Below, in pieces: positions 29,053 through 50,049 of a stretch of DNA of 64,000 nt; position 1 is the stretch's first letter; every line of letters starts with the position of its first letter. Origin of the DNA: Candidatus Saccharimonadales bacterium (lineage in GTDB: Bacteria; Patescibacteriota; Saccharimonadia; UBA4664; SCTI01). The notes under the pieces are model-generated. The model worked only from the letters and a program-made list of their open reading frames with translations. It did not search any database and was not told the DNA's origin. A program made the position numbers and the translations under genes. The stretch is from positions 94,487 through 158,486 of the forward strand of contig DATIII010000008.1 of assembly GCA_035479795.1 (NCBI GenBank). Direction: 5' to 3'.

Positions 29053-30537
29053 TTAGCGACCGAGGAATTGCTGCAAAGCCCGCGCCCGAACATCACCGAC
29101 GGCGGCAGACAACTCATCATGGCTCGCCTCTTTAACCCCACGGACGCTGCCAAATTGCTTAATTAGCTTCTTACGCGTGGCTGGGCCAATCCCCGGTACG
29201 TCGTCCAGCTGCGAAGCGGTTTGCCGCTTGCCTCGGAGTAAGCTGTGGTAGGTCACGGCAAAGCGATGGGCCTCATCACGCACCCGCTGGAGGAGCTGGA
29301 GAATGTGCGAGCTGTGGGGAAGTCTAACGACTTCGAAGTTGTTAGTTTTTTCTTCTCGTAACTTAATAATCTCCTCTTCGCGTTTGGCCAGCCCAATCGT
29401 CGGCAAGCTGACCCCAAGCTCGCTCATCACCCCCAGGGCCGCCGCCAGTTGCCCTTTACCACCGTCGATCAAGACTAAATCTGGCTTCGGCCACTGCTCA
29501 AGATTCTTGCCGCTGAATCGCCGCCGCATCACCTCGCGCATGTGCTCAAAATCGTCATTTCCGCCCTTGCGCATCTTGAACCGCCGATACTCTTCCTTAT
29601 GAGCCACACCATCCGTAAAGACAATCATGCTGGCCACATTGTCAGTTCCCTGCAGGTGCGAAATATCGTAAGCTTCAATCCGGCGCGGCAGGCCTTTGAG
29701 CTCCAACAGATCCGCCAAGCCCACCAAGGCCTGGTCACGCGATAGGTCGAATACCTCCTTGTCACCAAAAATCATTTGCTTCGATAGTGCCTGGATATTG
29801 CGTAATTGATTGCGTCGCACTGCCGCCGCCTCAAAATCTTGTTTTTTAGCCGCTGCCGCCATCTCTTTTTCTAGCTGCTTCACGAGCTTGGGCTTTTCCC
29901 CCTTGAAGTACATTTCCAGCCGACGCAAACTGCGCTTATAATCGGCCGATGTAATGGCACCAGCCTCTGGCCCCGGACACAGCCCAATGTGGAAGTGCAG
30001 ACAAGCTCGCGGCGGAGGCGGCGTCATAGAATGCGTTACATAAGGGAAAGCCTTGCGTAAATGCTTGAGTGCCTTGCGAACAGCATCACTCGAAGTATAC
30101 GGGCCAAAGTAATCGACGCAATCGTCCAATGGTCGTCGCACAATCTCCAACACCGGAAATTCATCCTGCATCGGAATGCGGATATAAATCCAGTGCTTAT
30201 CATCTTTAAGGTCAATATTGTATTTGGGCCGGTAGCGCTTAATAAACTCGGATTCCAGAAACAGCGCCTCTACCTCACTATCCACCGTAATCCAGTCAAG
30301 ATCGACAATGTCACCAACCAGCAGTGAAGTTTTGGCGTCACGGTGGCGCGATTGCTGGAAATACGAGCCAACTCGGTTTTTCAGATTAGCCGCCTTGCCA
30401 ATATAAATAATCTTGCCCTTGGCATCCTTATGGAAGTAAACTCCCGGCTCCTTGGGCAACTGCTTTAATTTTTGCACTAATTTATCAGGTTGGGACATCT
30501 GTCCTATTTTAGCATTCCATGTTTTAATATTGAGCAC
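29053..30537 (-). CDS. uvrC: excinuclease ABC subunit C
   Basis: GIY-YIG motif (GVYFHKDAKGKIIYIGKAANLKNRV), UvrC middle domain and C-terminal HhH. Confidence 0.95.
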   Translation of the reverse strand: MLNIKTWNAKIGQMSQPDKLVQKLKQLPKEPGVYFHKDAKGKIIYIGKAANLKNRVGSYFQQSRHRDAKTSLLVGDIVDLDWITVDSEVEALFLESEFIKRYRPKYNIDLKDDKHWIYIRIPMQDEFPVLEIVRRPLDDCVDYFGPYTSSDAVRKALKHLRKAFPYVTHSMTPPPPRACLHFHIGLCPGPEAGAITSADYKRSLRRLEMYFKGEKPKLVKQLEKEMAAAAKKQDFEAAAVRRNQLRNIQALSKQMIFGDKEVFDLSRDQALVGLADLLELKGLPRRIEAYDISHLQGTDNVASMIVFTDGVAHKEEYRRFKMRKGGNDDFEHMREVMRRRFSGKNLEQWPKPDLVLIDGGKGQLAAALGVMSELGVSLPTIGLAKREEEIIKLREEKTNNFEVVRLPHSSHILQLLQRVRDEAHRFAVTYHSLLRGKRQTASQLDDVPGIGPATRKKLIKQFGSVRGVKEASHDELSAAVGDVRARALQQFLGR

Positions 30538-32361: not shown

Positions 32362-35217
32362 CTATTTAGTAACGGGTACCTTAGATTTTGTGCCCAACAA
32401 GCGGCGCAGATATTTCCCGGTATGAGAATGATGTACCTCCGCCACCTGCTCGGGAGTACCCTCGGTGATCACCGTACCGCCGCCATCTCCGCCCTCGGGG
32501 CCCATGTCGATCACCCAATCCGCCGACTTAATAATGTCTAGATTGTGTTCGATAACCAAAACGGTATTGCCGCTTTCAACCAACGCATTTAGGACCTCAA
32601 GCAACTTTTTAACATCCTCAAAGTGCAGACCGGTAGTCGGTTCATCCAAGATGTAAAGTGTTCGGCCAGTCGAGCGTCGGGCCAGCTCGGTGGCTAATTT
32701 AATCCGTTGAGCCTCCCCGCCACTGAGCGTGGTGGCCGGCTGGCCCAAGCGAATATAACCTAAGCCCACGCTATTTAGAGTTTCAATTTTACGTTTAATG
32801 GCCGGGATATTTTCAAAGAAGCTAAGTGCCTCTTCAACCGTCATTTCCAGCACATCGGCAATGGTTTTGCTTTTATAGTGGATTTCCAGAGCCTCGCGAT
32901 TGTAGCGCTTGCCCTTACACTCCTCACAGGTTACATAGACGTCTGGCAAGAAGTGCATTTCGATTTTAATAATGCCATCGCCTTTGCAAACCTCACAGCG
33001 GCCGCCCTTGACATTAAAGCTGAAACGGCCGGCCTTATACCCACGAATTTTGGCCTCTGGCGTACCGGCAAATAGTTCACGAATATCGCCGAATACACCG
33101 GTATATGTAGCCGGGTTCGAACGTGGTGTGCGACCAATGGGACTTTGATCAACGCTAATCACTTTATCGAGATTTTTCAGCCCCTCAATATCATCATGTT
33201 TTCCAGGCACATCACCAGCTCGGTGAAAGACCTGGGCCAGTTTTTTAGCCAAAATGTCATTAATCAGGCTGGATTTTCCAGAGCCAGATACACCGGTAAC
33301 CGTCACAAACTGACCCAAAGGAATCTTTACATCAACGCCTTTAAGATTGTGCTCACGAGCATTCTTAATCTCAATACTATTTCCATTACCCTGGCGCCGT
33401 TGGGCTGGCACCGGCAGCTCCAGTTTACCCGCCAGATACTGCCCAGTCAGACTGGTCGGGTGGGCCGTTACCTCATCTGGCGTGCCAGCCGCTACCACCT
33501 CACCGCCGTGCTCACCCGCCATTGGCCCAATATCAATCAGCCAGTCGGCCGTGCGCATGGTATCTTCGTCGTGCTCCACCACAATGACGGTATTGCCCAG
33601 ATCGCGCAGGCGCACCAAGGTCGAAATCAACCGGTCATTGTCGCGTTGATGCAGGCCAATCGACGGCTCATCTAAGATATAGAGCACACCCATCAAGCTG
33701 GACCCAATCTGAGTCGCCAAGCGAATCCGCTGAGCCTCACCACCAGCCAGGGTGTTAGCACTACGATCTAAGGTCAGATAATTCAAGCCAACATCGCCGA
33801 GGAACTGTAGTCGAGCGCGGATTTCTTTCATTATCTGCTGGGCAATCTTTTGATCACGTTCGTTAAAGTCAATTCCATTAAAGAAGCTGCTGGCCGCTTC
33901 GATCGATAGTGTCGTTACATCTACAATCGACTTATCGCCAACCGTTACCGCCAGCATTTCCGGCTTCAGCCGTTTGCCATTACAAACCGGGCACTGGTGC
34001 TCTGCCATGTATTTGGCAATCTCACGCCGTACGAAGTCTGAATCGGTTTCGTGATAACGCCGTTCCAAATTCGGTACCACACCTTCAAAGGTCGTGTGAT
34101 AAGTGCGACCGCCAGGACCACGCATGGTGATGCCCTCATTGCCAGCGCCGTAGAGAATAATTCGTAACTCTTCCGGCTTCATCTGGCTAACTGGCACATC
34201 TATGGAAAAGCCAAAATGTTTGGCGGCGGCTTCAATCAAACGCGTATACCAGGTAACTCGAGCTGTTGTCCTGCTCCAGGGGCGAATAGCCCCTTCGGCC
34301 ACGCTTAGGCGACGATTAGGAATAACTAGCTCCGGATCTACCTCGAGCTTGGTGCCCAAACCGGTGCAGTGAGGGCAGGCCCCATGGGGTGAGTTGAACG
34401 AAAAATTGCGGGGAGCGATGTCGGGTAAACCGACCTCACGGTGCACCGGACAGGCGTAATGTTCGCTGTAGATAGCGATCTTTTCTCCGCCGGCTGGCGG
34501 ATCGGCTTCAAGGATTTTAACCACACCCTCGCCCAGCGCCAGGGCTTGCTCCACCGAATCAATCATGCGTTGGCGCTCCTCCGCCTCCACCGTCATTCGA
34601 TCTACCACTGCCTCGACGGTGTGCTTTTTCTGCTTATCTAGGTCTGGGAATTCAGTAATATCCATGACGATGCCGCCCACTCGCACCCGGCTGTAACCGG
34701 CCTTTTTGAGTTCTTGGACGATCGTCCGATGTTCGCCCTTCTTGTCGTCAACCACCGGTGCCAGAATCATAATCCGCGTCCCCTCCGGCAGCTCCATGAC
34801 CTGTTCGACAATCTGGCCGGAAGTTTGACGAGTAACTTCACGCCCACAAATTGGACAGTGCGGTACGCCCACGCGCGCCCAGAGCAAGCGCATATAGTCA
34901 TAAATTTCGGTCACAGTACCCACCGTCGAGCGCGGATTGCGACTGGAGGATTTTTGATCAATTGAAATGGCCGGGCTCAAGCCGTCAATCTGATCGACGT
35001 CTGGCTTTTCCATTAACCCTAAGAATTGGCGGGCATAGGCACTCAAGCTTTCGACATAGCGCCGTTGGCCTTCGGCGTAGATGGTATCAAAAGCCAGCGA
35101 GGATTTACCTGATCCGGACAGTCCGGTGATAACAACTAATTTGTCACGGGGGATTTCGACATTGATGTTTTTGAGATTGTGCTCACGGGCCCCGCGCACC
35201 ACAATCTTATCCTGCAT
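32362..35217 (-). CDS. uvrA: excinuclease ABC subunit A
   Basis: 951 aa with two ABC ATPase modules ([10 protein letters not shown] / [10 protein letters not shown]) and zinc-finger Cys clusters. Confidence 0.95.
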
Positions 35218-35938: not shown

Positions 35939-37930
35939 CTAGCGCTTTGTGTTTCGAGCGGCTTTTTGGGCTTCCTTTATCTCCTCAATCTGATCGCGCA
36001 GGGCGGCGGCCTTTTCGAACTGGAGATTTTCGGCAGCCAACTCCATCTGCTTGGTCAGCTCACTAACCAAATGCTTGCGCTCATCTTTAGGAATGTCGTC
36101 AATCTTAAATTCCTTAACATCGGCGGTTTCGGCCGCCTGCTCCGAACGCATCCGCTCGGCCAGGGCCTTCTTGATGCCAGCCGGGGTAATGCCGTGCTCA
36201 TTATTGTAGACCTCCTGCAGGGTTCGGCGCTTCTCAGTGGTTTCAATGGCTGCCTGCATTGAACGCGTACGGTTATCGGCGTACATTATAACTCGTCCCT
36301 CCACATGGCGAGCCGCTCGGCCAATAGTTTGAATGAGAGCCGATTCACTGCGCAAAAAGCCCTCCTTATCAGCATCCAGAATCGCCACCAAGCTGACTTC
36401 CGGCAGGTCCAACCCCTCTCGCAGCAGGTTGATGCCGACAACTACATCGTAAACTCCCGATCGGAGATCATGTAGAATATCGACCCGTTCCAGAGTGTCA
36501 ATCTCGGAATGCAAATATTGCACCTTGATGCCTAGCTCCGCCAGGTATTCCGATAAGTCTTCAGCCATGCGTTTGGTAAGAGTCGTAACCAGTACCCGCT
36601 GGCCCTTTTTGACCGTTTCACGGATCTCACTAATGAGATCGTCCACCTGATGGTTTGTCGGGCGCACTTCAATCTGGGGGTCCAGCAGGCCGGTTGGCCT
36701 AATCACCTGTTGCGCCACCTGGCTCGATCGCTTCACCTCCCATTCGGCCGGAGTCGCCGAAACATAGATGGCTTGGTTGATATGGCGTTCGAATTCATCA
36801 AACTTCAATGGCCGGTTATCGAGCGCCGAAGGCAGACGGAAACCGTACTCCACCAGCGTTTCTTTACGTGCCCGGTCGCCATTAAACATCCCCCGCACCT
36901 GCGGAATCGTCATATGGCTTTCGTCGACAAAAAGCAGAAAATCATCTGGGAAATAGTCCAATAAAGTGGCTGGCTGCTCCCCCGGCTCGCGGTTACTTAG
37001 ATACCTGGAATAATTTTCAATGCCGGGTACGAAGCCAGTTTGCTCCATCATTTCAAGGTCAAAATTAGTGCGTTGCTTGAGCCGCTGGGCTTCAAGTAGT
37101 TTATTTTCAGATGCAAGCTGAGCGAGACGAGTTTCGAGATCCACTTTGATCTCCCCAACGGCCTTCATCAACTTTTGATGCGGAGTCACGAAGTGCTTTC
37201 CAGGAAAGATTCTCAAGTTCTGCCGTTCGTTCAAAACCTCACCCGTCAACGGTTCCACCTGTCGAATCCGTTCTACCTCATCGCCAAAAAACTCGATGCG
37301 ATAAGCAACTTCTTCGCCGACCGGAAAAACTTCAACCGTATCGCCACGCACCCGGAAGGTGCCACGGGTGAAGGCAATGTCATTACGGCTGTATTGAATG
37401 TCCGTCAGTAGCCGCAGCAATTTATCCCGTTTGCGCTTCTCACCTTGCTTCACCTCAACCGTCATGGATGTGTAATCTTCCACATTTCCGAGACCATAAA
37501 TACAGCTCACCGAAGCCACAATCAGCACATCTTTACGGGTCAGCAGGCTCATGGTGGCAGCATGCCGCAACCGGTCTATTTCTTCATTAATGGCGCTGTC
37601 TTTTTCGATAAAAGTGTCGCTGCGCGGAATGTAGGCCTCAGGTTGGTAGTAATCGTAGTAACTAACAAAGTACTGGACGGCGTTATCGGGGAAAAACTGC
37701 CGAAATTCGCCGTAGAGCTGGGCTGCTAAAGTCTTGTTGTGGCAAAGAATCAAGGTTGGCTTTTGGACGTTTTGAACAACATTGGCCATGGTAAAGGTCT
37801 TACCGGAACCGGTCACGCCCAGAAGCGTTTGCTCCTTATCGCCCCGCACCAAACCTCCCGAAAGCTGTTTAATTGCTCTCGGCTGATCTCCCGCCGGCTG
37901 ATACTGACTGCTTATCTTAAAATTAGCCAT
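35939..37930 (-). CDS. uvrB: excinuclease ABC subunit B
   Basis: 663 aa with helicase motifs (GVTGSGKT…), beta-hairpin region and a C-terminal UvrC-binding coiled coil. Confidence 0.95.
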
Positions 37931-38075
37931 CTCCTAATTATACAAGGTCGGACCTTTACCTGGGAAGAAATGCCTTTTCAGATCAACGGAAGGTCGGACC
38001 CTGTTGACTAAACGTAAGTTTTATGATATAAAAAGGCCGTCGTACATCTACAATTTCAACCGAAAGGAAGCCCAC

Positions 38076-38483
38076 ATGCGGCTCGCAGTAGCCCTGGCGA
38101 TCTTCTTCATCACCCTCTTCGCTATTGGTGTGTGGGCGAACTACCCGATCACCACGGCAATCTGCCTGGTGCTCGGCGCGGCTTTGATCGGCATCATGAT
38201 CTACAACGGCGTGACAGGCGGAGTCATCTTCGATCGCACGACCGACGAAGGTCGCCGAACGGAGGTTCGGGTGGTAACTCTCGGCATTCTGCTGTTTGTC
38301 CTAGGGGCCTTTGCCGCTTGGGCCGGCCGTCAGAAGTTGGGCCACTGGGGCGAAACAGCCTTCACCACCGTCACCATCGCCGTCATCTTGGCGGCCATCG
38401 CCTTCGGCGTCGTGACCTGGGTGCTCAGCTACGCCGGGATTGACCTTGGCAAGAAGAAGAAAAAGAAGGACGACAACAAGTAG
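38076..38483 (+). CDS. membrane protein, hypothetical (Lys-rich C-terminal tail)
   Basis: Start at MRLAVALAIFF… after AAGGAAG; four TM helices; followed by a terminator. Confidence 0.5.
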   Translation: MRLAVALAIFFITLFAIGVWANYPITTAICLVLGAALIGIMIYNGVTGGVIFDRTTDEGRRTEVRVVTLGILLFVLGAFAAWAGRQKLGHWGETAFTTVTIAVILAAIAFGVVTWVLSYAGIDLGKKKKKKDDNK

Positions 38484-38515: not shown

Positions 38516-38560
38516 CCACCATCAGGTGGGCCCGAGCGCCTGGCGCCTTTTCTGTTTTTT
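38516..38560. terminator. bidirectional terminator region (CCACC-atca-GGTGG and GCGCC-tg-GCGCC hairpins followed by TTTTCTGTTTTTT)
   Basis: Lies between convergent genes 38076-38483 (+) and 38559-39113 (-). Confidence 0.5.
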
Positions 38561-39113
38561 ATTTAGCGTATTTGATATCTAAAATAGTGATCAGTCGGTC
38601 CACCAGGCGAGCGGGGTCGTCGTCGAAAATCACCGTATGCCGGTTGCGCTTGGCCGCCTTCAAAACTTCCTTGATTGCATCGGTCACGCCCCCCGACCCG
38701 GTAACAATTCCAATCGGCGTCTTTTCTTCGAATGCCACCGCAAATTCTTGCAGTGTCCCGACCCGGCCGCCAATGGTTACTACAGCATCAGCCGAGCGAA
38801 CTAACAACAGATCCCGACCGGTATAACCAAACCCCGTGCAGAGGATACTGTCGAAGTTAGCTACCGGTAGTCGGTAAACTTTAATGTGCTCACGCCGAGA
38901 AACAGCTGGAGAAAAACCAATGGATACCCCGCCGGCCTGCTTGGCCGCCTTAGCGGCCGCGTCCGGCAGTCCAGATGTCGCGCCGGTAATCAAAACTTGT
39001 CCGCGCTCGGCAATTCGCTTGCCTGCTGCCTCCGCTAATTTGGCAGAATGCGTAACCGCCGCCCCTCTGGCCGAGCCGGAAACACAAATCTGATAGGGGT
39101 ACCCCGATTTCAT
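38559..39113 (-). CDS. LOG-family / TIGR00725 Rossmann-fold nucleotide-binding protein (putative nucleotide N-glycosidase)
   Basis: GGRVGTLQEFAVAF matches the LOG PGGxGTxxE motif; 184 aa. Confidence 0.7.
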   Translation of the reverse strand: MKSGYPYQICVSGSARGAAVTHSAKLAEAAGKRIAERGQVLITGATSGLPDAAAKAAKQAGGVSIGFSPAVSRREHIKVYRLPVANFDSILCTGFGYTGRDLLLVRSADAVVTIGGRVGTLQEFAVAFEEKTPIGIVTGSGGVTDAIKEVLKAAKRNRHTVIFDDDPARLVDRLITILDIKYAK

Positions 39114-40339
39114 AAGGTTTCAGGCTTAATCATGGCGTTATCTAATTTCATGAGTAGTTGTTCCTCGAGCTCCTTCTGCCCGAAGTACCTGGCAAACACT
39201 TCGTTCCACAACGACTCGCGGAAATGATACAGATAACGATCTTCAAATTTTAAGCCGTTCGAGTAACTTAGACTGACATCCATGAGGTTAAAAGTGACAG
39301 TCTCGCCAGTTTTTAGCGTCGCCACATAATCCATATCGCGCCACATCGCCAAATCGGGATCAACCTGATACAGCAGGTTCTCGGCCTTACGCCAATGCAA
39401 ATCCTCAGGCTGGACGTGTGGTTCAAAAATTTCCGGATGCGACTCGTTTTTGAGCTTGCCAAAGTAGCGCTGAATCACCCGCCAATGGATATGTCCGTGA
39501 TCGATCAGGGGGATGTCCGGCGTATCCGCGATCAAAGTTTCCGCCACAATCTGCCCAAAGTTTTTCTTGGGCTGCATCAGTTTAAAGAACGCACTGTACA
39601 GCCGAATCTCATTAAAGTAATGAAAAATCAGTGGCATAACCTTAAGGGTCACACCCGGCATCCGTTCGATCGTCATCGGCATAACACAAATAGCACCCAA
39701 CTCCTTCAGGTTGGTAATATTGTGCAGTTTCTTTTGAATAAAATGTTCGGCAATGTCACCCCATTTATTCGGGTCAAACTGAACAATTCTAATATTGCGG
39801 GCCTCAAAATCAGCCGGCTTCAGTTTGGAATACTTGGCGTTAAATTTATTCAGCCAGTCAGCTTCTTCCGCAAATCTCAGCGAGCCGTAGATCTCGAATA
39901 GATCCTCTTTTTCCAGTAGGCCTTCTAGTGAATCATGCCCCAGCCGTTTCATCACAGCCTTCGGCGGCATTGATTTAAGCATACCTTCCGCCACCTCGGT
40001 TTTAATAAACCAGCCATCGCGGGGCATCTGGACCTGCTCGATTCGGCGCACAACCAACGGGATCATTTCGTGTACATCCTCAGGATCATGCCCGCCGATA
40101 GTGTGGGCAAGATGCTCATCCTGTCGCTTAACTCTTTCGACTAATGCTTTGTACAGATCAGGTCCGCTGCAGCCGGCGTCAAGGCCCAGATCAGAAATCA
40201 CACTGCCAGCTTTCTGGGCAATCTCACCGGCCAAAGCAGCATCGATGCCCTTTTTACCTGTGCGCTTTTCCAGCTCCTGCAGTGCTTGGTCAAATAATGG
40301 CTCTTTGGCTTGAAGAAAGGTCGCGAGTCGGCTGCGCAT
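39110..40339 (-). CDS. hypothetical protein (409 aa), operonic between the LOG-family and PfkB genes
   Basis: Start/stop overlaps on both sides; no motif recognised. Confidence 0.5.
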   Translation of the reverse strand: MRSRLATFLQAKEPLFDQALQELEKRTGKKGIDAALAGEIAQKAGSVISDLGLDAGCSGPDLYKALVERVKRQDEHLAHTIGGHDPEDVHEMIPLVVRRIEQVQMPRDGWFIKTEVAEGMLKSMPPKAVMKRLGHDSLEGLLEKEDLFEIYGSLRFAEEADWLNKFNAKYSKLKPADFEARNIRIVQFDPNKWGDIAEHFIQKKLHNITNLKELGAICVMPMTIERMPGVTLKVMPLIFHYFNEIRLYSAFFKLMQPKKNFGQIVAETLIADTPDIPLIDHGHIHWRVIQRYFGKLKNESHPEIFEPHVQPEDLHWRKAENLLYQVDPDLAMWRDMDYVATLKTGETVTFNLMDVSLSYSNGLKFEDRYLYHFRESLWNEVFARYFGQKELEEQLLMKLDNAMIKPETL

Positions 40340-41313
40340 CAGATAGAAACTCGCTTAACTTTCATTTTCTTTATTTTCGACACCCCCCGAAGTATGCCGC
40401 TTTTGGCACCGACCGACTGCACAACCGAAGTCGAGTTGGCACTAGCCAGTGTCAGAGCATCTTCAATCGGCCAGCCCCGGGCAATAGCGGCTACAAAGCC
40501 CGAGCAAAAGGCGTCGCCTGCACCAGTGCGATCCAAGACTTTAACCCTCTGGTATTGACCAGCGAAGTAGATTACCTGACCATCTGAAGCATAACTACCA
40601 CCGGGCCCATCAGTTAGGACAATGTAGGGGCAATAGGGCATGGCGTTAAGCATGGTGTCCACGGGCGACTCGCCCCCAAACAGCCTGGCCATTTCCTCGC
40701 GGTTGGCAATCAATATGTCCACGGCCTGCAGATAGCCCCGCAGTTTTTTGGCATTAGCCAACTCCCCCGCACCGGGATTTAGAGCAACTCGAACATCGTT
40801 GCGATGAGCGGTTTGCAACAGGTTCTTTAATAAATCCATATTCCCAGCCAAAGAAGAAATGTACATCCATCCACCCTTCATTTGATGGAGCGAAAAGTCG
40901 TTTGTTTTGAGAGCATGCGAGGCGCCTCGGTAGGCTAGGATCGTGCGCTCGCCGTTATCAGCTAGCAAGATCACCGAGTAGCCCGTCCCGAGTCTGTCAT
41001 CCACCCGAACGTGGGCAGTATCAACCCCTTCACGTTTAAGGACTCGCAGGACTTCCGCACCGGCCGGATCCTTACCGAGTTTGCCCGCAAACTGCGCATT
41101 CATCCCTTGCCGAGCAAAAGTAACTGCCGCATTAGTAGCTCCACCACCGGTGTCAAAAAAAACGTGGTCGAGCTCGAGCTTGGCTCCCAACGGAAACTGC
41201 TCGACAAAACTGTGACTACGCACGTCGCGCTTGGCATGCAACGCCTTGCCCGCCGCAAAGACGTCTTGGGTCGCCGCCCCCACGCAAATAATATCGATAT
41301 CTCTAGGATCCAT
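40339..41313 (-). CDS. PfkB-family carbohydrate/nucleoside kinase (ribokinase-like)
   Basis: DTGGGATNAAV and DRTGAGDAFCSGFVAA signatures; 324 aa. Confidence 0.85.
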   Translation of the reverse strand: MDPRDIDIICVGAATQDVFAAGKALHAKRDVRSHSFVEQFPLGAKLELDHVFFDTGGGATNAAVTFARQGMNAQFAGKLGKDPAGAEVLRVLKREGVDTAHVRVDDRLGTGYSVILLADNGERTILAYRGASHALKTNDFSLHQMKGGWMYISSLAGNMDLLKNLLQTAHRNDVRVALNPGAGELANAKKLRGYLQAVDILIANREEMARLFGGESPVDTMLNAMPYCPYIVLTDGPGGSYASDGQVIYFAGQYQRVKVLDRTGAGDAFCSGFVAAIARGWPIEDALTLASANSTSVVQSVGAKSGILRGVSKIKKMKVKRVSI

Positions 41314-41378
41314 GCCTAAATTATACCGCTTATGGTATTTGAAAAATAGTCACAAATACCGATATACAATCTGAAACT

Positions 41379-42125
41379 CTACTCAAATTTCATTGATTTA
41401 AGTATTTGTTCAGCCATGATGAGGTTCGGAAGAGCGTAGTATTTATCAGCTGGCAGTTTAGACTGCGTAAAGGTTTGGGGATAAGCGCCGTAAGCCCAGA
41501 CCCGACCGGTATCATCATCTTTGGCGCCTTTTTTATTAAAGATAAGATAGGGCGGAAAGCTACGAATCTCCTTAATTTTCACAAATGCGTCGACATCGTA
41601 ATCACCTTTATACAGGGTATAAAGGCCGATTGTCTTTTGGCCTAAGTCACGCCGGCTCGGGTAGGTCGCAAGATAATACTTGATCAAATAGGTGTCGGCC
41701 GAACCTCCTGATACCGTGGCCGGTGCGGCACTGTATGTTTCAACATAGGGGCAGCCGTCGTCTTCTTGCTCTTCCATACTGCAGCCCCCACCTATACCAC
41801 TGGGATTGTTATAAACATAAAACTCAAAGCCATCAGGAGCCGTCAACTTGCCAGTGTCGGTTTTCCACGTATCCTGGACCTCTAACTTAATATCCGAGCT
41901 CCAGTTGGCCGGATACCTAAAACTCAAACCATTAATTGTCGACTTATAAGTAGCCCAGCCTTTGTATGGGTCAGTCTTGGCGGCGGGAACTTTCGACTCG
42001 GAAGTAACCGTCTTGGCGCCATGATTTTGATAGGCAAAGTAGGCCGCTGTACCAATCGCAAAGATGGCTACCACTACCAGAAGTCCTTCGAGTACTGCGA
42101 GCCCTGTTTGATTAATTTTTTTCAT
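41379..42125 (-). CDS. type IV pilin-like protein (prepilin-type N-terminus with Glu+5)
   Basis: MKKINQTG|LAVLEGLLVVVAIFAI… followed by a secreted domain containing a Cys pair. Confidence 0.5.
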   Translation of the reverse strand: MKKINQTGLAVLEGLLVVVAIFAIGTAAYFAYQNHGAKTVTSESKVPAAKTDPYKGWATYKSTINGLSFRYPANWSSDIKLEVQDTWKTDTGKLTAPDGFEFYVYNNPSGIGGGCSMEEQEDDGCPYVETYSAAPATVSGGSADTYLIKYYLATYPSRRDLGQKTIGLYTLYKGDYDVDAFVKIKEIRSFPPYLIFNKKGAKDDDTGRVWAYGAYPQTFTQSKLPADKYYALPNLIMAEQILKSMKFE

Positions 42126-42160: not shown

Positions 42161-42799
42161 TTATCCTATGCCGTCAAGCTGGGGCGTATCCAGTGATTTC
42201 CAGATATACCAAGACGCGATTGATTCATACCCCTCCCATTTACCCTTGGCCGCGAGTTGGCGGATTTTCAAATCGTCAGGGAGGTCGCGTAAACCATACA
42301 GAATTCTAATGCCATTGCGCACGCCCAAATCGCCGACGGGTAGAACCTCTAGCCGCCCCAGGCAAAAAATCAGAAACATATGGGCCGTCCATTCGCCAAT
42401 GCCCTTCACGTCGGTTACCTCCACTACGATCTCGTCATTAGTAAGGTTAGATATACGCTTCAAATCAAGTCGTCCATCCTGTACATGAGCCGCCAAATCC
42501 TTGATGTATTTAACTTTTGAATTAGACAGTCCAACCCCACGGAGAACCTCATCGCTCATCTGGAGAACCTCATCTGGCCGCGGAAAGCCCTTGTGACCCA
42601 GGTCGGCAAATCGCTGGCGAATAGTACTAGCTGCTTTAACGCTGAGCTGCTGGCCAATAATGGAACTGGCCAAGGCTTGAAAATAGTTACTGTGCGGCTG
42701 GATATCTGGACGTGGATTGCGACTAATAACCAGAGCTAAAACTGGATCATTAGCCGAAATAACCTCGATGCCCTCGGAAATCTTGTCCTGAAAATCCAT
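42161..42799 (-). CDS. HhH-GPD base-excision DNA glycosylase (AlkA/3-methyladenine glycosylase II-like)
   Basis: HhH-GPD motif (…LPVGDLGVRNGI…) with a catalytic Asp. Start taken at the ATG (MDFQDKI); the ORF track's TTG extension overlaps the fba 3' end. Confidence 0.75.
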   Translation of the reverse strand: MDFQDKISEGIEVISANDPVLALVISRNPRPDIQPHSNYFQALASSIIGQQLSVKAASTIRQRFADLGHKGFPRPDEVLQMSDEVLRGVGLSNSKVKYIKDLAAHVQDGRLDLKRISNLTNDEIVVEVTDVKGIGEWTAHMFLIFCLGRLEVLPVGDLGVRNGIRILYGLRDLPDDLKIRQLAAKGKWEGYESIASWYIWKSLDTPQLDGIG

Positions 42800-42806
42800 C
42801 TGATAT

Positions 42807-43706
42807 TTAGGATTTGTTGACAGAGGCGTCGTAGACGGCAGCGATGGTGGACTCAAGCTTGGCGCCAAATTCTGCGTCTGATTGGTCAGCCTTTAAGCCT
42901 TCAGCCAATACTCGGCTAAAGCTGGCAATCACATCGTGATTTTGCCGCAATCGCCGGTTCGCTTCGTTTCCGTCATAGCCACCGGAAAGCGCCACTACTC
43001 TTACTACCCGTGGGTGCTTTGTGAACGGCTCATACAAATCGGGCTGCTCCGGCAGGGTCAGCTTGAGCATAACCATCTGATCTTCGCCTAGTTTATCCAA
43101 ATGGGCATTCAGCTGATCAAACAGCTCTTTTTCGCATTCGGCCTTATCAGGGGCATGAATATCTACCTCAGGCTCAATAATGGGCACGAGATTTTTACTC
43201 ATTATCTGGTGGGCGCAGTCGAACTGTTGCTCGACAACCTTGGCAATCCCATCGGCATTATGGCCTTTGATCACCGACCGCATCTTAGTTCCAAAAATAT
43301 GTTTTTCCACCGCTCTATCAAGCAAAGCGTCTAAATCCGGCATCGGCTTCATGAGCTGAACACCACCCACTTCTTCAGCCAGGCCATTATCTATCTTTAA
43401 AAAGGGCACAACCTTTTTCTGCTCCCATAAGTAATCGGCACTATCCTGGCCTTCAATCTGACGCTCCATGGTTGCCTTGAATAAGATGGCACCTAGAATA
43501 CGGTCGCCACTAAAAACGGGGCTGGTAACTATCCGACTACGCATCTGGTGGACCAGATCAAACATCTGCTCCTCACCCGAATAAGCCGTTTCCGAAATGC
43601 CATAACTGGCCAAGGCCTTAGGCGTACTTCCGCCCGACTGATCTAGGGCCGCCACAAAGCCTTTACCATCGCGCATCTTGGCTAGCTGTTCCTGATTTGG
43701 ATTCAT
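42807..43706 (-). CDS. fba: fructose-bisphosphate aldolase, class I
   Basis: N-terminus …[22 protein letters not shown]… is typical of bacterial class I FBA (Fda-like); 299 aa. Confidence 0.8.
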
Positions 43707-43708
43707 AA

Positions 43709-44689
43709 TTACTCCTTAATTAGCTCCTCCGCCGCCTTCATTATATGTGGTGCTGTCAGGCCAAAGTGCTCAAGTAGCTCATCTGGCTTGCCGGATTCAC
43801 CGAACCGATCACGCATGCCAATCCGTCTAACCGGTACCGGAAAGTTTTCACTCAGCAGCTCGGTCACGGCGGATCCTAATCCACCGGCAATCTGGCTTTC
43901 TTCACAGGTGACTACCCGTCCAGTTTTCTTGACCGACTTTAATATGGTAACTGAATCTAATGGTTTGACTACGGCGGCGTTGATCACTTCGGCCTCGATT
44001 CCCTTTTGTTTTAATTTTTCAGCAGCCAGCAGCGCCTGATGAACCAAGAGTCCGCAGGCGACGATAGTAATGTCTTCGCCCTCACGCAATATCTGAGCTT
44101 TATTCAGCGCAAACGGAGTATCGGGAGTTGTGATAACAGCCGATTTTTCGCGGGCCAGCCGAATGTAGGCCCCGCCCGGATGGCTGGCCAGAGCAATGGT
44201 GGCTTTTTCGGCTTCGACTGAGTCGCACGGTACCACCACTGTCATATTCGGTAGTACCCGCATTAGCGCAATGTCTTCTAGCATCTGGTGGGTGGCGCCA
44301 TCAGGGCCAACCGATACGCCGGCATGCGAACCGGCAATTTTAACATTGGTTTCATTTAAACAAACTGTCGTACGTATCTGTTCCCAGTTGCGGCCGGGCG
44401 AAAAGGCAGCATAGCTGGATACAAAGGGAATCTTCCCAGCCAGAGCCATGCCAGTGGCCACCGTCACCAAGTTCTGTTCGGCCACCCCAACCTCAACAAA
44501 TCTTTCCGGAAAAGCTTTGGCAAAACCGTCCATTTTGGTCGAATCAGTTAGGTCGGCGCAAAGAGCCACCACATTTGGCAGTCGCTCACCGAGCTTTACC
44601 AGCCCACTGCCGAAGCCATCACGAATAGCCTGTTGTTTAACTTCCGGGCTGAGCGCATCCGGTGTTAGTTTCATCTCGGTGTTCATCAT
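43709..44689 (-). CDS. transketolase, C-terminal subunit
   Basis: 326 aa with Pyr-binding and C-terminal transketolase domains. Confidence 0.9.
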
Positions 44690-45096
44690 TTTCTAATTCC
44701 CCTTGAATACTGCCTTTGGCGCCAAGCATCTGTAACGAGAATTATCATACTAATGACAACTAAGGGTACTACTATGATTGGCCCTAAATTAAAATGGCCC
44801 TCAGACTGGGCGCCATACCATAATGGCAAAATAAATGATGCGATCAACATCGCAATGAAATTCTTACGTGACAGCGTTATCAAATACCCAACCATAACTA
44901 GCGCGGCGCAAATTGCGATGAACCCATAAATAAAGGCAAAGATTGCAAGCGTATTAGTAAGACCGGATATTGAACTATTAACCACTAACCCGCTGCCAAA
45001 AAGTATCAACTGCGTAATGGGAATAATTGCCGGTATTGCGAGCCACATGGCTACTGGCCAAGTTCGATAATTTAAGTTAACCATCAGCCTAGTCAC
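44686..45096 (-). CDS. membrane protein inserted between the transketolase subunit genes
   Basis: 136 aa with four TM helices; 4-bp overlaps on both sides. Confidence 0.5.
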   Translation of the reverse strand: MTRLMVNLNYRTWPVAMWLAIPAIIPITQLILFGSGLVVNSSISGLTNTLAIFAFIYGFIAICAALVMVGYLITLSRKNFIAMLIASFILPLWYGAQSEGHFNLGPIIVVPLVVISMIILVTDAWRQRQYSRGIRK

Positions 45097-45971
45097 TATT
45101 CATGCTCCCCGCGAATCCGGCCTTGGAGGGTCCGTAACTCATGCAGGGCGATCTTGGCTTGCTCAGCCTTGGGCGGTGATCCAGGCGGCTCAATGGTGCC
45201 AGGCGGGTTGCCGTGCCAGTGAAAGTCATATTCCATAAAATCTACCCCTTTGCCCGGAATCGTATGCGCCACGATAACTGTAGGCTTATTTTCGACGGCT
45301 TTGGCCAGATTGCAGGCGTCGATGACGGCTTGAATATTGTGGCCGTCCACCTCCATCGTATGCCAGCCAAAGGCCTTGAATTTCTCGGCCAAATCACCAA
45401 GCGGCATAACCTTTTCGGTTGGCCCATCAATCTGGATATTATTGCGGTCGACTATCACCGTTAGATTGCTCAAGTTGTATTTGGGTGCAAACAGGGCAGC
45501 TTCCCAAATATTACCCTCGTCAAGCTCACCATCGCCAGTTAGGCAATAGACTCTTCTGTCTTTTTTACCGTCCATTTTAAAGGCCAGTGCCAAGCCACAT
45601 GCAGCACTCAAACCGGAGCCAAGTGGACCGCTGGTCGTCTCCAGCCCGGGCAGTCGCAGCCTCTCAGGATGGCCTTGTAGCCGAGAGCCGAATTTACGCA
45701 GAGTCTTCAACTCTTTCACCGGAAAGTAGCCAGCCCGAGCCATGGCCGCGTAACGGATTGGCACAATATGTCCGTTGGACAAGATCAAGCGGTCGCGTTC
45801 GGGCCAATCAGGATTTTTAGGGTCATGTTTGAGAATTCGAAAATACAGGGCTGTAAAAATGTCGGCCATTCCGAGTGGGCCAGCCGAATGCCCGCTACCG
45901 GCCGCCACCAGCATTTCGATAACGTCTTGGCGCAGTTGATTGGCCTGCTTGTCTAGCTCAGCGACGGTCAT
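45096..45971 (-). CDS. transketolase, N-terminal (TPP-binding) subunit
   Basis: 291 aa with the GDG…N TPP motif (…LTGDGELDEGNIWEA…). Confidence 0.9.
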   Translation of the reverse strand: MTVAELDKQANQLRQDVIEMLVAAGSGHSAGPLGMADIFTALYFRILKHDPKNPDWPERDRLILSNGHIVPIRYAAMARAGYFPVKELKTLRKFGSRLQGHPERLRLPGLETTSGPLGSGLSAACGLALAFKMDGKKDRRVYCLTGDGELDEGNIWEAALFAPKYNLSNLTVIVDRNNIQIDGPTEKVMPLGDLAEKFKAFGWHTMEVDGHNIQAVIDACNLAKAVENKPTVIVAHTIPGKGVDFMEYDFHWHGNPPGTIEPPGSPPKAEQAKIALHELRTLQGRIRGEHE

Positions 45972-46606
45972 ACCGGCACCTCGGCCTTCATCTGGATCAC
46001 GTCGTAGGCCTGCTCGGGCATGGGCGAACTCTGAAGGTAGGCACCAACGAACAAAACGTCAGCATCTTTGGCCACAATCTGCTTCGCCACCACGTCGGTC
46101 ACGCCCCCATCGACGCCAACTTCCACGCTGGGATTGAGCTGGCGAACGGCGGCGATTTTTTCTAGCGGCCCGGCTTGGAACTGGCCGCCATTGTGGCCCA
46201 AGTGGCCAGTGAAAATAAGTACGTGGTCGGCCAGCTTAATTAGTTCGGCCGCCGAATCAACCGTCGTCTCGGGCAGGATAGCCACACCGGCTTTGACATC
46301 GAGCTCATGGCAATGATTGATGAGGGATGCGAGATCGCCGTTAGATTCGGCATGAAAGATAATCAACTCAGGATGCAAGCTTAAAGCTGACTCGATCTGG
46401 CTAGCCGGATCTTTGACCATCAGATGCAGGTCAACAGCCAACCCGGTATCAAAATGCACCTGGGCCAGGCTGATCGTGGGATTATCGGCAAACTGGCCAT
46501 CGCAAATGTCGATATGAACTCGCGGCGATAATGAAGTCGCCAACTTTAGCCGCTGATCATACTCGGCCGGGCTGGTGGCGAGCACCGTCGGCACCACTTT
46601 AGCCAT
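45968..46606 (-). CDS. rpe: ribulose-phosphate 3-epimerase
   Basis: TIM-barrel Rpe motifs (…HIDICDGQF…DLHLMV…GVDGGV…). Start taken at MAKVVPT… with a GGGGGA RBS; the ORF track's N-terminal extension is rejected. Confidence 0.85.
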   Translation of the reverse strand: MAKVVPTVLATSPAEYDQRLKLATSLSPRVHIDICDGQFADNPTISLAQVHFDTGLAVDLHLMVKDPASQIESALSLHPELIIFHAESNGDLASLINHCHELDVKAGVAILPETTVDSAAELIKLADHVLIFTGHLGHNGGQFQAGPLEKIAAVRQLNPSVEVGVDGGVTDVVAKQIVAKDADVLFVGAYLQSSPMPEQAYDVIQMKAEVPV

Positions 46607-46729
46607 TATTAAAAATCCCCCAGCTTGATGGAGTTCAAGGAAAAACCAGTCCCTGCAGCGAGGCGTAGTGCGACTACGTCGAGCGAAGCGACGCTGATTT
46701 GACGCTGAAATACGCAAACTGGAGGGTTT

Positions 46730-47182
46730 TTAGCCACCGTATATTTCCTCTATTTGTTCAAGTCGACGCTTGTGTCTTTCAAGGCCAGAAAATTTTTGAT
46801 CAATAAAGGCGTCTACCACGGCTAAGGCCGTATCGATGTCGATCATATTTGCCGGCAGCACCAGCACATTGGCATCGTCGTCATGACGCGCGGCGCGGGC
46901 TTCCTGCGGGCTCCAGACCAAGGCCGCTCGGATTCCCGGAACTTTATTGGCTGCCATGGCCATCCCCTGGCCGCTACCACACAACAAAATACCATAGGCC
47001 TCACCGTCTCCCTCGCCTAGCAGCTTGGTACAAACACTAAAGGCATATTTGGGATAATCATCGTCTTTGTTGAATGTCACCGCCCCCTCATCCTCAACGC
47101 CAATACCCTTATGAGCCAGGTGATCCAAGACCTGATTCTTCATCTCGAACCCTTTATGGTCAGAGCCCAGAAATACGACCAT
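46730..47182 (-). CDS. rpiB: ribose-5-phosphate isomerase B
   Basis: 150 aa, …LLCGSGQGMAMAANK… RpiB/LacAB fold. Confidence 0.85.
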   Translation of the reverse strand: MVVFLGSDHKGFEMKNQVLDHLAHKGIGVEDEGAVTFNKDDDYPKYAFSVCTKLLGEGDGEAYGILLCGSGQGMAMAANKVPGIRAALVWSPQEARAARHDDDANVLVLPANMIDIDTALAVVDAFIDQKFSGLERHKRRLEQIEEIYGG

Positions 47183-47241: not shown

Positions 47242-48264
47242 TCATATCGTTTTCCCGACATTTATAACCTGTTCAACGAGTCGGTTCGAATACCCCCACT
47301 CGTTATCGTACCAAGCCACAACCTTCACCAAATTTCCGCCAACCACGTTTGTCAGCTTCAAATCCACAATGGCCGAATGAGTATTGCCGCGATAATCGGT
47401 AGAAACCAATTCTTCTTCAGTAGCGGCGAGGATCCCTTGAAGCTTGGGGCTATGACTGGCCTTGGTTAAAGCCGCATTTACCTCTTCGACCGTAGTATCT
47501 TTCTTACTGACAAAGGTGATATCAGCGATCGAAACCACCGGCGTGGGGACCCGAATGCTCATACCGTCAAAGATACCCTTTAGCGCCGGGTAGGCCAGAG
47601 CCGCTGCCTTAGAGGCACCAGTAGTGGTGGGCACAATGTTTTCAGCCGCATTGCGAGCTTCGCGCAGGTCCTTGGCCGGAGCATCTTGCAGCTTTTGGCT
47701 GGCCGTGTAGGAGTGAACCGTAGTCATTAAGGACTTTTCAACTCCAAAAACTTCATCCAAAACCACCATGACCGGTGTGATGCAGTTGGTGGTACACGAG
47801 GCATTTGAAACAATCTTATGTTCTGATGTAATTTTGTCCTCGTTAGCCCCAATCACAAAGGTTTCGTGGGCTTCGTGATGAGCTAAATCACCTTTTTCCG
47901 GGGCGCTCAGCACAACTCGCTTGGCTCCGGCCTTCAAATGTGACTCGAGAGCTTCATGGGTGGTGAAAAAGCCGGTGCTTTCAATGACCACATCTACCTT
48001 CAGGTCCTTCCAGGGCAGAGTAGCCGGATCTTTTTCGGCCAGAACTGCAATCTTTTTACCGCCCACAATCAAGTGTTTTTCATCGTGCCCGACTTCTTCG
48101 TGGTAAAGACCGTAGTTCGAGTCGTGTTTGAGTAAGTGGGCCAGCGTTTCGGTATCTGTTAAATCATTAACCGCCACCACTTCGAGCTCATGATGAGCGT
48201 TGGCAATCTTAAAGGCATTGCGGCCAATGCGCCCAAAGCCATTAATTGCTACTTTTATTGCCAT
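47242..48264 (-). CDS. gap: glyceraldehyde-3-phosphate dehydrogenase
   Basis: INGFGRIGR Rossmann motif and ASCTTNC active site; 340 aa. Confidence 0.95.
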   Translation of the reverse strand: MAIKVAINGFGRIGRNAFKIANAHHELEVVAVNDLTDTETLAHLLKHDSNYGLYHEEVGHDEKHLIVGGKKIAVLAEKDPATLPWKDLKVDVVIESTGFFTTHEALESHLKAGAKRVVLSAPEKGDLAHHEAHETFVIGANEDKITSEHKIVSNASCTTNCITPVMVVLDEVFGVEKSLMTTVHSYTASQKLQDAPAKDLREARNAAENIVPTTTGASKAAALAYPALKGIFDGMSIRVPTPVVSIADITFVSKKDTTVEEVNAALTKASHSPKLQGILAATEEELVSTDYRGNTHSAIVDLKLTNVVGGNLVKVVAWYDNEWGYSNRLVEQVINVGKTI

Positions 48265-48372: not shown

Positions 48373-49002
48373 CTATTCGTTGGCGGTGAAATTGAAGCTA
48401 GCTGGAATGGGATTTGGCAGTTCGGACTCGGTGCCATAGGTCAGAACGATTTCCTGATGAGCTTCCAGCTTTAACTGGCGCGGATCACCGGTATACTCAT
48501 GACCGTTTACATAAACTCGCACTCTGCTATCATCCTTCGAGCCGTAACCACCTAGATGATCTTTATCAAATTTCACGCCCCAGATATCCATAAACTGGCC
48601 AAAGTAAAAATCCTGCTTCTTCGGCGACTCAACATGGATAACTCCGCGCGTGTCATGGGTATGTAGCTCGGTTATAAAACCTGCGGCCTCGTTGATGCCA
48701 ATCTCGGGAACAACCTCGACGGCCTTACCATGCACAAAAATATCCAGGTGCTGGTGAATATGGAAATCGACAGCTTCTTGCGGTAGAGCCGGCATACCAA
48801 TCTTATCCAAGCGTTCTTTTAGCTTGTCAGTATTCTTGGGCCATGGCGCTTCTGAGGTTAACAGGCCGGGCAAACCGTCTGACGTGGCACTGGGCTTAAC
48901 TGACTGATCGGGGGACTTATCGGAATTGCCGCCCAACATGAAAACGCCAACTAGGCCGGCAACGACCAGTGCCAAGACAATCCACAATCCGTACTTCCTC
49001 AT
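48373..49002 (-). CDS. secreted His-rich protein, hypothetical
   Basis: N-terminal TM/signal segment; HIHQH and HTHDTRGVIH motifs; overlaps the ppa start. Confidence 0.45.
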   Translation of the reverse strand: MRKYGLWIVLALVVAGLVGVFMLGGNSDKSPDQSVKPSATSDGLPGLLTSEAPWPKNTDKLKERLDKIGMPALPQEAVDFHIHQHLDIFVHGKAVEVVPEIGINEAAGFITELHTHDTRGVIHVESPKKQDFYFGQFMDIWGVKFDKDHLGGYGSKDDSRVRVYVNGHEYTGDPRQLKLEAHQEIVLTYGTESELPNPIPASFNFTANE

Positions 49003-49526
49003 TTGGCGGCCCTGGCAATCGATTCTTTAATAACCTGCTTGGCCTCGGCCGCATCCCCCCAGCCCAAAACCTTGGTTGAGCCTTGCTGCTTTAAATCCTT
49101 GTAGTGATTAAAGTGGTGCTCAATCTTTTGCTTCCAAGCAGGGTGTAAATCATCCATCGACTGGATCGTGTCACCGACATTGCGGTCATCCAGTGGTACG
49201 CAAATAATCTTATGGTCGGCGTCACCACCGTCATCAAAATTCATAATGCCGAGCACCTTGGCCTGCAGATAAACTCCCGTAGGCAAAGGCTCGTTGGTGA
49301 TAATCAGGGCGTCGAGCTCGTCTCCGTCGTCGTCCAGAGTACGCGGAATAAAACCGTAATTGACCGGCTTGGCAAAGATACTCGGCTCCACCCGATCAAG
49401 CTCAAAACAGGCCAGCTCACGGTTCCACTCGATCTTCAGTGTCGACCATTTAGGGATCTCCACCACCGTATTGATGATGCCGTTTTGGTAATCTCCAGCG
49501 TCTAATATTTTGTTAAAATCAGGCAT
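48999..49526 (-). CDS. ppa: inorganic pyrophosphatase (family I)
   Basis: …EIPKWS…DGDELDALI…DDGGDADHKII…; 175 aa. Confidence 0.9.
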   Translation of the reverse strand: MPDFNKILDAGDYQNGIINTVVEIPKWSTLKIEWNRELACFELDRVEPSIFAKPVNYGFIPRTLDDDGDELDALIITNEPLPTGVYLQAKVLGIMNFDDGGDADHKIICVPLDDRNVGDTIQSMDDLHPAWKQKIEHHFNHYKDLKQQGSTKVLGWGDAAEAKQVIKESIARAAK

Positions 49527-49534
49527 TCCTTCTC

Positions 49535-49960: not shown

Positions 49961-49973
49961 AGTTTCTCCTTAT

Positions 49974-50008
49974 TTCGACTTTCGACTTTCGACTTTCGAC
50001 TTTCGACT
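49974..50008. repeat. perfect heptanucleotide tandem repeat (TTCGACT)x5, equal to (AGTCGAA)x5 in the cupredoxin sense, between a TATAAT-like box and the AAGGAG RBS
   Basis: Direct reading: tat ttcgact ttcgact ttcgact ttcgact ttcgact tataat. Confidence 0.9.
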
Positions 50009-50049
50009 TATAATATTGTACCTTGGCAGCGCCAAAATCCAAGCTCTAG

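Follow-up and report, generated by a model that had tools for sequence, protein, structure and literature searches.

A PfkB kinase, U409 and LOG gene triad at the end of a sugar-phosphate cluster in Patescibacteria

Why do a PfkB-family kinase, a LOG-superfamily protein, and a protein of no annotated family share overlapping genes? The question is raised by 64,000 nucleotides of DNA (the window) from a Candidatus Saccharimonadales bacterium (contig DATIII010000008.1, positions 94,487 to 158,486). Three consecutive minus-strand genes encode, in order, the kinase (324 residues; 40339-41313); a cytosolic protein of 409 residues, here called U409 (39110-40339); and a 184-residue protein of the LOG superfamily, similar to SLOG cluster 4 and TIGR00725 (38559-39113). 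An earlier note on this DNA, made from the sequence alone, had read them as a module for nucleoside or nucleotide processing. Comparison with related genomes leads to a more specific view: the triad is a conserved variant, specific to the Patescibacteria (candidate phyla radiation, CPR), of a "kinase plus nucleotide N-glycosidase" theme, attached to a cluster of pentose-phosphate and glycolysis genes.

Conservation of the triad and its cluster

The three genes are joined through their start and stop codons. The kinase and U409 genes meet at ATCTGATGCGC, in which TGA and ATG share a single A at 40339 (TGATG; 1-nucleotide overlap), and the U409 and SLOG genes meet at CTTATGAAATC, an ATGA with a 4-nucleotide overlap (39110-39113). 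Open reading frame coordinates and both junctions agree with the earlier description of a fused gene set.

The neighbourhood of U409 was compared across 92 loci: 80 from species-level Saccharimonadia genomes, and 12 from distant members of the U409 family (L numbers denote loci; P numbers, proteins). The arrangement was found again in these 92 independent loci, which is far beyond chance and upholds the idea of a conserved module. In 85 loci the sequence on the relevant side is available, and 77 of these have a LOG-superfamily gene near U409: adjacent in 71, at 0.6-2.6 kb in five, and fused in one. In most loci it is co-directional and overlapping, with U409-SLOG junctions of -4 or -1. Elsewhere its orientation is convergent (L086, L087-89, and L092) or divergent (L064, L065, L068, and L079). 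The fused protein, P0123 (L081), carries a canonical LOG domain with the motif PGGFGTLDE at the U409 carboxyl terminus (PF03641, E=1e-32). The type of partner switches as well: TIGR00725 in some lineages, canonical LOG in others. (The one canonical partner scanned, that of L087, scores 126 bits on TIGR00730, for which the cut-off is 96.) Finally, the order in L085 is U409-SLOG-PfkB-MFS (major facilitator superfamily) transporter, in a different genomic setting; the triad thus moves as a unit.

Orientation-independent adjacency, fusion, partner exchange, and the relocation in L085 together speak for a functional link of U409 with LOG-type proteins. Whereas the earlier note had taken the middle protein to be a functional partner because of its strict operonic embedding, these observations identify it as a specific partner of LOG. 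The tie to the kinase is looser: of the 88 testable loci, 86 have a PfkB orthologue upstream of U409 (within 200 bp in 66, within about 2 kb in 20), and two have none.

The four loci with a divergent LOG gene form one Saccharimonadia subgroup (about 4100-4900, minus strand; in L065, 2179-2886). They are without a co-directional SLOG cluster 4 gene; the interval between U409 and a more distant PfkB (30-32% identity) holds a divergent, canonical-type LOG gene, immediately upstream of U409.

What surrounds the triad was missed in the earlier note: the three genes form the distal end of a same-strand run of sugar-phosphate genes, both in the window and across the CPR. The run begins, at its proximal end, with GAPDH (47242-48264; PF00044/PF02800), and continues on the minus strand with RpiB (46730-47182; PF02502), the ribulose-phosphate 3-epimerase Rpe (45968-46717; PF00834), the amino-terminal half of transketolase (TktN; 45096-45971; PF00456), its carboxyl-terminal half (TktC; 43709-44689; PF02779/PF02780), and a class I fructose-bisphosphate aldolase (FBA; 42807-43706; NCBIfam PRK05377, 478 bits against a cut-off of 392). 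In the window, two lineage-specific genes are inserted before the kinase gene. This context is seen in the window and in 11 distant CPR loci, there usually with a class II aldolase; five loci (L081, L084, L086, L090, and L091) share the order of the genes at the proximal end (GAPDH, RpiB, and Rpe) with the window. The cluster GAPDH-RpiB-Rpe-transketolase-aldolase-PfkB-U409-LOG is, in the explanation favoured below, vertically inherited; it is widespread in Patescibacteria.

The three proteins

U409 belongs to a large family. A word-indexed search returned 2244 homologues at E<=1e-3; the best 120 of these are all full-length, at least 61% identical, named "hypothetical protein", and mostly from Saccharibacteria or Patescibacteria, and an identical protein is on record from a Candidatus Saccharimonadales metagenome-assembled genome. 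An exhaustive profile search collected 875 clusters at 50% identity, 349 of them at E<=1e-30. Among the 150 clusters listed, most proteins are 380-445 residues long (about 16 are fragments, and two are longer), and full-length identity declines to about 26%. One distant member comes from Candidatus Spechtbacteria. A few records bear non-CPR labels; their flanking genes look like those of Saccharimonadia, so these records probably are mis-binned. The family appears to be limited to Patescibacteria. Across the 80 Saccharimonadia species its median identity is 58%, between those of PfkB (52%) and TktC (65%).

Family member P0122 (582 residues) has an additional amino-terminal extension of 170 residues, which contains no Pfam domain and resembles a partial duplication of the family's own amino-terminal helical region. 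Self-comparison of U409 with hhalign detected no internal duplication.

What kind of protein is it? The window sequence matched nothing in Pfam, NCBIfam, PADLOC, or the sequences of the PDB. A set of 113 family members, compared with Pfam at E<=10, yielded no recurrent family, and the family profile yielded nothing significant among all PDB sequences (best E=0.32). The AlphaFold (AF2) model is a confident one (predicted local distance difference test 93.4; predicted TM-score 0.91), and Foldseek found no structural neighbour for it (best E 0.53 in the PDB, and 0.22 in BFVD). The protein is indeed as unrecognisable as first described. Nor did it prove to be a common housekeeping enzyme that occurs apart from LOG and PfkB, the outcome that would have spoken against the original proposal; it co-occurs with both.

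Conservation was measured on the diverse alignment of 113 sequences. Residue D354 is invariant; E24, E145, E158, D177, E179, R181, E213, W162, W286, and W333 are conserved in at least 90%, and H308 (81%), S349, and N351 in at least 80%. The invariant and near-invariant residues are mainly acidic, with Arg and His in addition; in the explanation favoured below, U409 would have an acidic, probably Mg-binding site. Two more specific assignments were tried and rejected. A MazG-like ExxE...ExxD motif fails because E149 and D161 are below the 75% threshold for family-wide conservation. A Pol-beta nucleotidyltransferase or HEPN-like fold fails because the Foldseek matches are non-significant and the motifs incomplete (Rx3H only, no G[GS]). 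Ten of the top 50 Foldseek matches are Pol-beta-type nucleotidyltransferases, none significant; for terminal uridylyltransferases and CCA-type enzymes, E ranges from 0.85 to 5.6 and the TM-score from 0.08 to 0.16. The sequence D177-F-E179-A fits [DE]h[DE]h, but no hG[GS] precedes D177.

The LOG-type protein is easier to place. Its clearest match is to PF18306, "SLOG cluster4" (120 bits against a cut-off of 26.3, E=9e-35). Its best NCBIfam match, TIGR00725, remains below the cut-off (85.2 bits; 106.9 required), as do the models for LOG itself, PF03641 (20.5; 27) and TIGR00730 (41.3; 96.35). Among solved structures, 1RCU (3e-13) and the molybdenum cofactor (Moco) carrier protein 2IZ5 (1e-9) are nearest, and true LOGs lie further off. 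The earlier assignment to a TIGR00725 or LOG family therefore stands in the form of a SLOG cluster 4, TIGR00725-like protein, whereas the GGxGTxxE signature given with it needs correction: the window reads I114-G115-G-R-V-G-T-L-Q-E123, or GGRxGTxxE, aligned with the canonical PGGxGTxxE. The form GGRxG[TS]xxE occurs in 62 of 73 orthologues, and PGG only in seven canonical-type partners. Five residues, R100, E123, G44, G116, and G119, are invariant in all 73. The first two of these match R99 and E122, the catalytic residues of Corynebacterium glutamicum LOG (PMC4979012). From sequence, catalysis by the LOG-type protein is plausible; the better argument for LOG-like chemistry is its exchange with canonical LOGs in other lineages.

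A search of the literature on TIGR00725, or on Patescibacteria together with phosphoribohydrolase, found nothing. In two Thermotogota loci, TIGR00725 genes follow genes for OmpH and an LptB-like ATPase; neither PfkB nor U409 occurs there. The oral Saccharibacterium Southlakia epibionticum has a second paralogue of TIGR00725/SLOG cluster 4, beside a phosphoribosyltransferase (PRTase)-like protein (SEML1_0423-0424; PMC10633639 supplement). This pairing is another link of the SLOG family to phosphoribosyl or nucleotide chemistry in Saccharibacteria.

The kinase is a clear member of the PfkB family (PF00294, 156.7 bits against a cut-off of 25.8, E=1e-45), but which member is less obvious. Its top NCBIfam match is ribokinase (TIGR02152, 129.6 bits; cut-off 299.65), with PRK11142 at 90 bits (cut-off 341), and ribose-1-phosphate kinases rank second; the models for both activities are missed by far. 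Scores on the pfkB and 1-phosphofructokinase (1-PFK) models are lower yet (TIGR03168, 63 bits against 216.4; TIGR03828, 58 against 292), identity to Escherichia coli Pfk-2 is 19%, and the pseudouridine kinase model is matched at E=4e-4; phosphofructokinase (PFK) activity is still compatible with these values.

The protein was aligned with E. coli RbsK and Pfk-2 (from the K-12 record) and with CPR orthologues, eight kinases in all. Its G56-G57...N61 and T263-G-A-G-D267 align with G41-G42...N46 and the GD motif of RbsK. Residues G57, N61, G266, and D267 are invariant among the eight, and D17 is conserved as well with respect to RbsK and Pfk-2. The residues that hold ribose are not kept. RbsK K43 corresponds to G58 in the window protein; in the five other CPR orthologues it is replaced by Asn four times and, in L085, by Cys; RbsK E143 corresponds to Ala in the window, and to Ala, Ser, or Asn across the orthologues. 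These two ribose-binding residues (Lys, E. coli K43 and human K54; Glu, E143 and human E154) are important in ribokinase (PMC12621476). Loss of both, with retention of the catalytic and anion-hole residues, indicates that the protein is not a canonical ribokinase, and that candidate was rejected, given also the scores below cut-off. Thus the "PfkB ribokinase-like kinase" of the earlier note keeps its family, but loses the ribokinase Lys and Glu.

Other Saccharibacteria offer a hint of its role. In these and other CPR bacteria, no PFK is annotated, and usually no transaldolase either (PMC6031116, PMC7143001). For the PfkB protein of Nanosynbacter lyticus TM7x (TM7x_02415), encoded beside an aldolase and induced by glucose, the role of a pfkB-type PFK has been predicted (PMC12815258). 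In the transposon-sequencing table for Southlakia, FBA and PfkB both received growth-defect calls, and the adjacent "LOG family" PF18306 gene was called non-essential (PMC10633639 supplement).

Possible function and rival explanations

The gene arrangement points to an undescribed step between nucleotides and central sugar metabolism. In the explanation that we favour, with a probability of roughly 40%, the LOG-type protein is an N-ribohydrolase that feeds ribose-5-phosphate to the cluster; PfkB is a non-canonical kinase of a sugar or sugar phosphate; and U409 is an enzyme or regulator coupled to LOG. We infer the activities and substrates, and any catalysis by U409, as follows. The LOG-superfamily protein would cleave the N-glycosidic bond of a nucleoside 5'-monophosphate (NMP), yielding ribose-5-phosphate and a free base. 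RpiB, Rpe, and transketolase would turn ribose-5-phosphate into fructose-6-phosphate and sedoheptulose-7-phosphate. The kinase would then phosphorylate a sugar or sugar phosphate of this route, most plausibly fructose-6-phosphate, sedoheptulose-7-phosphate, or both, and the adjacent aldolase would split the resulting bisphosphates, thereby covering the "missing" PFK and transaldolase. As for U409, it might be a Mg2+-dependent enzyme that makes or hands over the nucleotide substrate of LOG, or alternatively a stoichiometric regulatory subunit through which a nucleotide auxotroph would gate its nucleotide hydrolysis. The nucleotide and ribose-5-phosphate module of the earlier note is retained in part: the link through ribose-5-phosphate suits a pentose-phosphate context.

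A bolder version is doubtful. In this version U409 would be a new fold and a new Patescibacteria family of enzymes or allosteric proteins that, with LOG, feeds ribose-5-phosphate from scavenged nucleotides into a transaldolase-independent PfkB/aldolase route. Were that so, the cluster would constitute a complete, previously unrecognised pathway for the fermentation of nucleotide ribose, explaining the missing PFK and transaldolase steps.

Several observations weigh against the favoured explanation. UvrB (35939-37930, minus strand, downstream of the triad) and then GatCAB, which are functionally unrelated to it, are equally constant neighbours of U409-LOG across the CPR; gene order in this group is partly frozen, so that adjacency alone is weak evidence. 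No LOG gene lies near U409 in eight of the 85 loci, and S. epibionticum keeps FBA-PfkB-LOG without U409 at that locus, the LOG gene being scored as non-essential there, as noted above. The middle gene also has a history of its own. By PfkB, SLOG, and UvrB, the window groups with L025, L035, L039, and L045 (70-84% identity); by U409, it is only 57-60% identical to these, but 63-66% identical to the more distant L001, L002, L003, and L012. This suggests that the middle gene alone was replaced in situ, with its overlaps preserved, and such gene-specific incongruence argues against tight co-evolution with the neighbours. The LOG-type protein, for its part, has a variant motif and fails the PF03641 and TIGR00725 cut-offs. 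Moreover, a non-catalytic protein, the Moco carrier, keeps the same Arg and Glu, so their conservation is no proof of hydrolase activity. Lastly, the kinase has its highest scores on ribokinase and ribose-1-phosphate kinase models.

Part of this pattern would be expected if the neighbourhood were only a frozen ancestral gene order, with no pathway in common: PfkB would belong with aldolase and glycolysis, and U409 and LOG would have unrelated functions. UvrB and GatCAB, which have no link to sugars, keep their places beside the triad over the same evolutionary range; genes are lost separately (SLOG in the eight loci, U409 in Southlakia); and U409 has had an evolution of its own. Against this, the triad survives relocation and reordering in L085; LOG stays by U409 when inverted, when swapped for another LOG subfamily, and once as a fusion; and the start/stop overlaps are kept in dozens of species. 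Frozen order with no shared pathway seems quite unlikely. The almost constant UvrB downstream can also be read as meaningful, if U409 and LOG sanitise the nucleotide pool in connection with DNA repair, destroying damaged or surplus (deoxy)NMPs of host origin rather than feeding carbon. In the window a base-excision glycosylase of the HhH-GPD type (42161-42868, between the aldolase and the triad), UvrA (32362-35217), and UvrC (29053-30537), the latter two downstream of the triad, are all nearby on the minus strand; Saccharibacteria, which rely on nucleosides from outside, have many genes for repair and sanitising (PMC6031116); and the PRTase-like neighbour of the Southlakia paralogue would suit such a role. 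However, in L085 the companions of the U409-LOG pair are PfkB and a transporter rather than UvrB; just three of the 92 loci have the HhH-GPD gene in the neighbourhood; and the kinase and sugar-phosphate cluster are left without explanation. Sanitation is a very improbable account.

A rival that takes the cluster as its starting point assigns U409 to the sugar phosphates themselves: it would be a missing CPR enzyme, such as a sedoheptulose or fructose bisphosphatase opposing PfkB or the catalyst of a different pentose-phosphate step, and LOG would be a nucleotide-sensing regulator, or incidental. U409 does lie within the GAPDH-RpiB-Rpe-Tkt-FBA-PfkB cluster, both in the window and at distant CPR loci, often is translationally coupled to PfkB (-4 overlaps), and has a conserved site that is rich in acidic residues, like those of Mg-dependent phosphatases; CPR bacteria reportedly lack fructose bisphosphatase (FBPase), PFK, and transaldolase (PMC7143001, PMC6031116). 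Yet transaldolase is encoded alongside U409 in L002 and L087-89 (as TAL_FSA, in the same cluster), and phosphoglucose isomerase in L085. A simple substitute for transaldolase was accordingly rejected, and one for the isomerase is unlikely. U409 resembles no class of FBPase or other sugar-phosphate enzyme in Pfam or the PDB, Southlakia retains a fitness-relevant FBA-PfkB pair where U409 is missing, and the fusion and orientation-independent adjacency with LOG find no explanation. We consider this rival unlikely. (TM7x does make ATP from glucose; PMC12815258.) The earlier note had also linked the LOG fold to conflict systems based on nucleotide signals. In such a system SLOG would sense a nucleotide messenger, and U409 would act as effector or, as a Pol-beta-type nucleotidyltransferase, would produce the signal. 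SLOG domains do serve as sensors in Thoeris and in systems related to it (PMC7272460; bioRxiv 10.64898/2026.03.01.708072), and the non-significant Pol-beta-type matches and the partial motif at D177 point the same way. But those matches have E values of 0.5-5 with TM-scores between 0.08 and 0.16, and the hG[GS] is missing. PADLOC gave nothing meaningful: no match for U409 or PfkB, and for the SLOG protein a partial match to PsyrA (15.5 bits, E=0.0017, 50 residues). The genes keep one fixed position amid housekeeping genes in many species across the CPR, unlike mobile defence islands, and the base composition of the window is unremarkable. A defence role is hardly credible, and that link finds no support.

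Why the favoured explanation matters is clear from the organisms. Patescibacteria account for much of the diversity of bacteria, and are nucleotide auxotrophs with gaps in their carbon maps (PMC6031116, PMC7143001). U409 occurs throughout this group, and its conservation is similar to that of the core enzymes encoded beside it, and yet it has neither annotation nor structural neighbour. If the module feeds nucleotide ribose to glycolysis, it would define how epibionts draw energy from the nucleic acids of their hosts. If U409 gates LOG, nucleotide hydrolysis would be under a new type of control, in organisms with no means of remaking nucleotides. The triad is a concrete, expressible system of three proteins.

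Neighbouring genes and comparison with known systems

A gap of 65 nucleotides separates the kinase start from the preceding gene. Within it, 6 nucleotides upstream of the ATG, a TATAAT box can be read on the minus strand (41320-41325), a possible candidate promoter for a leaderless or short-leader transcript; a scan for consensus sequences called no complete -35/-10 promoter at this site. Around the operon as a whole, no consensus promoter or terminator rose above shuffled expectation, and no riboswitch or other Rfam element was found. The 3' side of the triad faces a convergent gene for a multi-pass membrane protein of 159 residues (38004-38483, plus strand), with a weak DUF2062 match and a terminal KKKKKKDDNK tail.

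The gene that precedes the kinase encodes a 248-residue prepilin-like protein (41379-42125, minus strand; weak PsbP_2 match). The earlier note was right about its pilin-like character, as the amino terminus, KKINQTG followed by LAVLEGLLVVVAIFAIG, is prepilin-like; it is no member of the module, since homologues occur in only four of the 92 loci, and those that were mapped are 2-4 kb away (L006 and L027). The listed TTG start of the adjoining HhH-GPD gene overlaps the aldolase gene by 62 nucleotides and probably lies too far upstream; an internal Met (MDFQDK...) is likelier.

Within the cluster, the two transketolase halves are separated by an open reading frame for a hydrophobic, lineage-specific protein of 136 residues (44686-45096, minus strand), which overlaps both. 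This protein has no Pfam or NCBIfam match, and no homologue among the 92 loci. In other CPR loci the halves are directly adjacent, and L082 has a 457-residue He_PIG/Big_9 protein inserted at the same place. Beside the cluster (48999-50988, minus strand) are genes for an inorganic pyrophosphatase, a cupredoxin of the plastocyanin/azurin type (49535-49960), and a flavoprotein like thioredoxin reductase (50050-50988). A cupredoxin is worthy of note in a presumed fermentative episymbiont.

How does the triad compare with known systems? Its last protein shares the superfamily fold of the LOG and PpnN phosphoribohydrolases (PF03641, TIGR00730), with Arg and Glu at the same spacing. Several CPR lineages pair U409 with a true TIGR00730 LOG, in one case as a fusion, and the LOG product, ribose-5-phosphate, suits the adjacent pentose-phosphate genes. 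We know of no LOG or PpnN with a U409-like partner; a Pfam scan of U409 family members detected none of the flanking domains of PpnN. The top Pfam match and the nearest solved structures place the window protein with SLOG cluster 4 and TIGR00725 (1RCU; Moco carriers 2IZ5 and 6Y01). The Moco carrier protein is a non-catalytic carrier of a cofactor, unlike the role proposed here.

The kinase resembles TM7x_02415, matched by description: a PfkB "ribokinase" in the same position, sharing an operon with FBA. It differs from the PFK assignment given to that protein, itself a prediction, in scoring 58-63 bits on the 1-PFK and pfkB models, compared with 130 on ribokinase. Southlakia, a related oral Saccharibacterium, presents the pair PfkB-LOG without U409.

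Two metabolic systems offer parallels in logic. The first is the pair of pseudouridine kinase, of the PfkB family, and pseudouridine-5'-phosphate glycosidase. Its logic, in which the gene for a kinase of this family accompanies that for an enzyme breaking a nucleoside monophosphate down to base and ribose-5-phosphate, would be that of PfkB and LOG in the window (PMC7797080, PMC12322656). The pair differs in that its glycosidase has another fold; in the window there is a third component, U409, and PfkB may act on sugar phosphates rather than nucleosides. The second is the archaeal AMP/pentose-bisphosphate pathway. It comprises AMP phosphorylase, ribose-1,5-bisphosphate isomerase, form III RuBisCO, and a ribose-1-phosphate kinase of the PfkB family. 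None of the signature enzymes of that pathway is encoded in the window cluster, where entry would instead be hydrolytic, by LOG, into the non-oxidative pentose-phosphate pathway. In concept, however, the two are alike: each would bring the ribose of nucleotides into central carbon metabolism.

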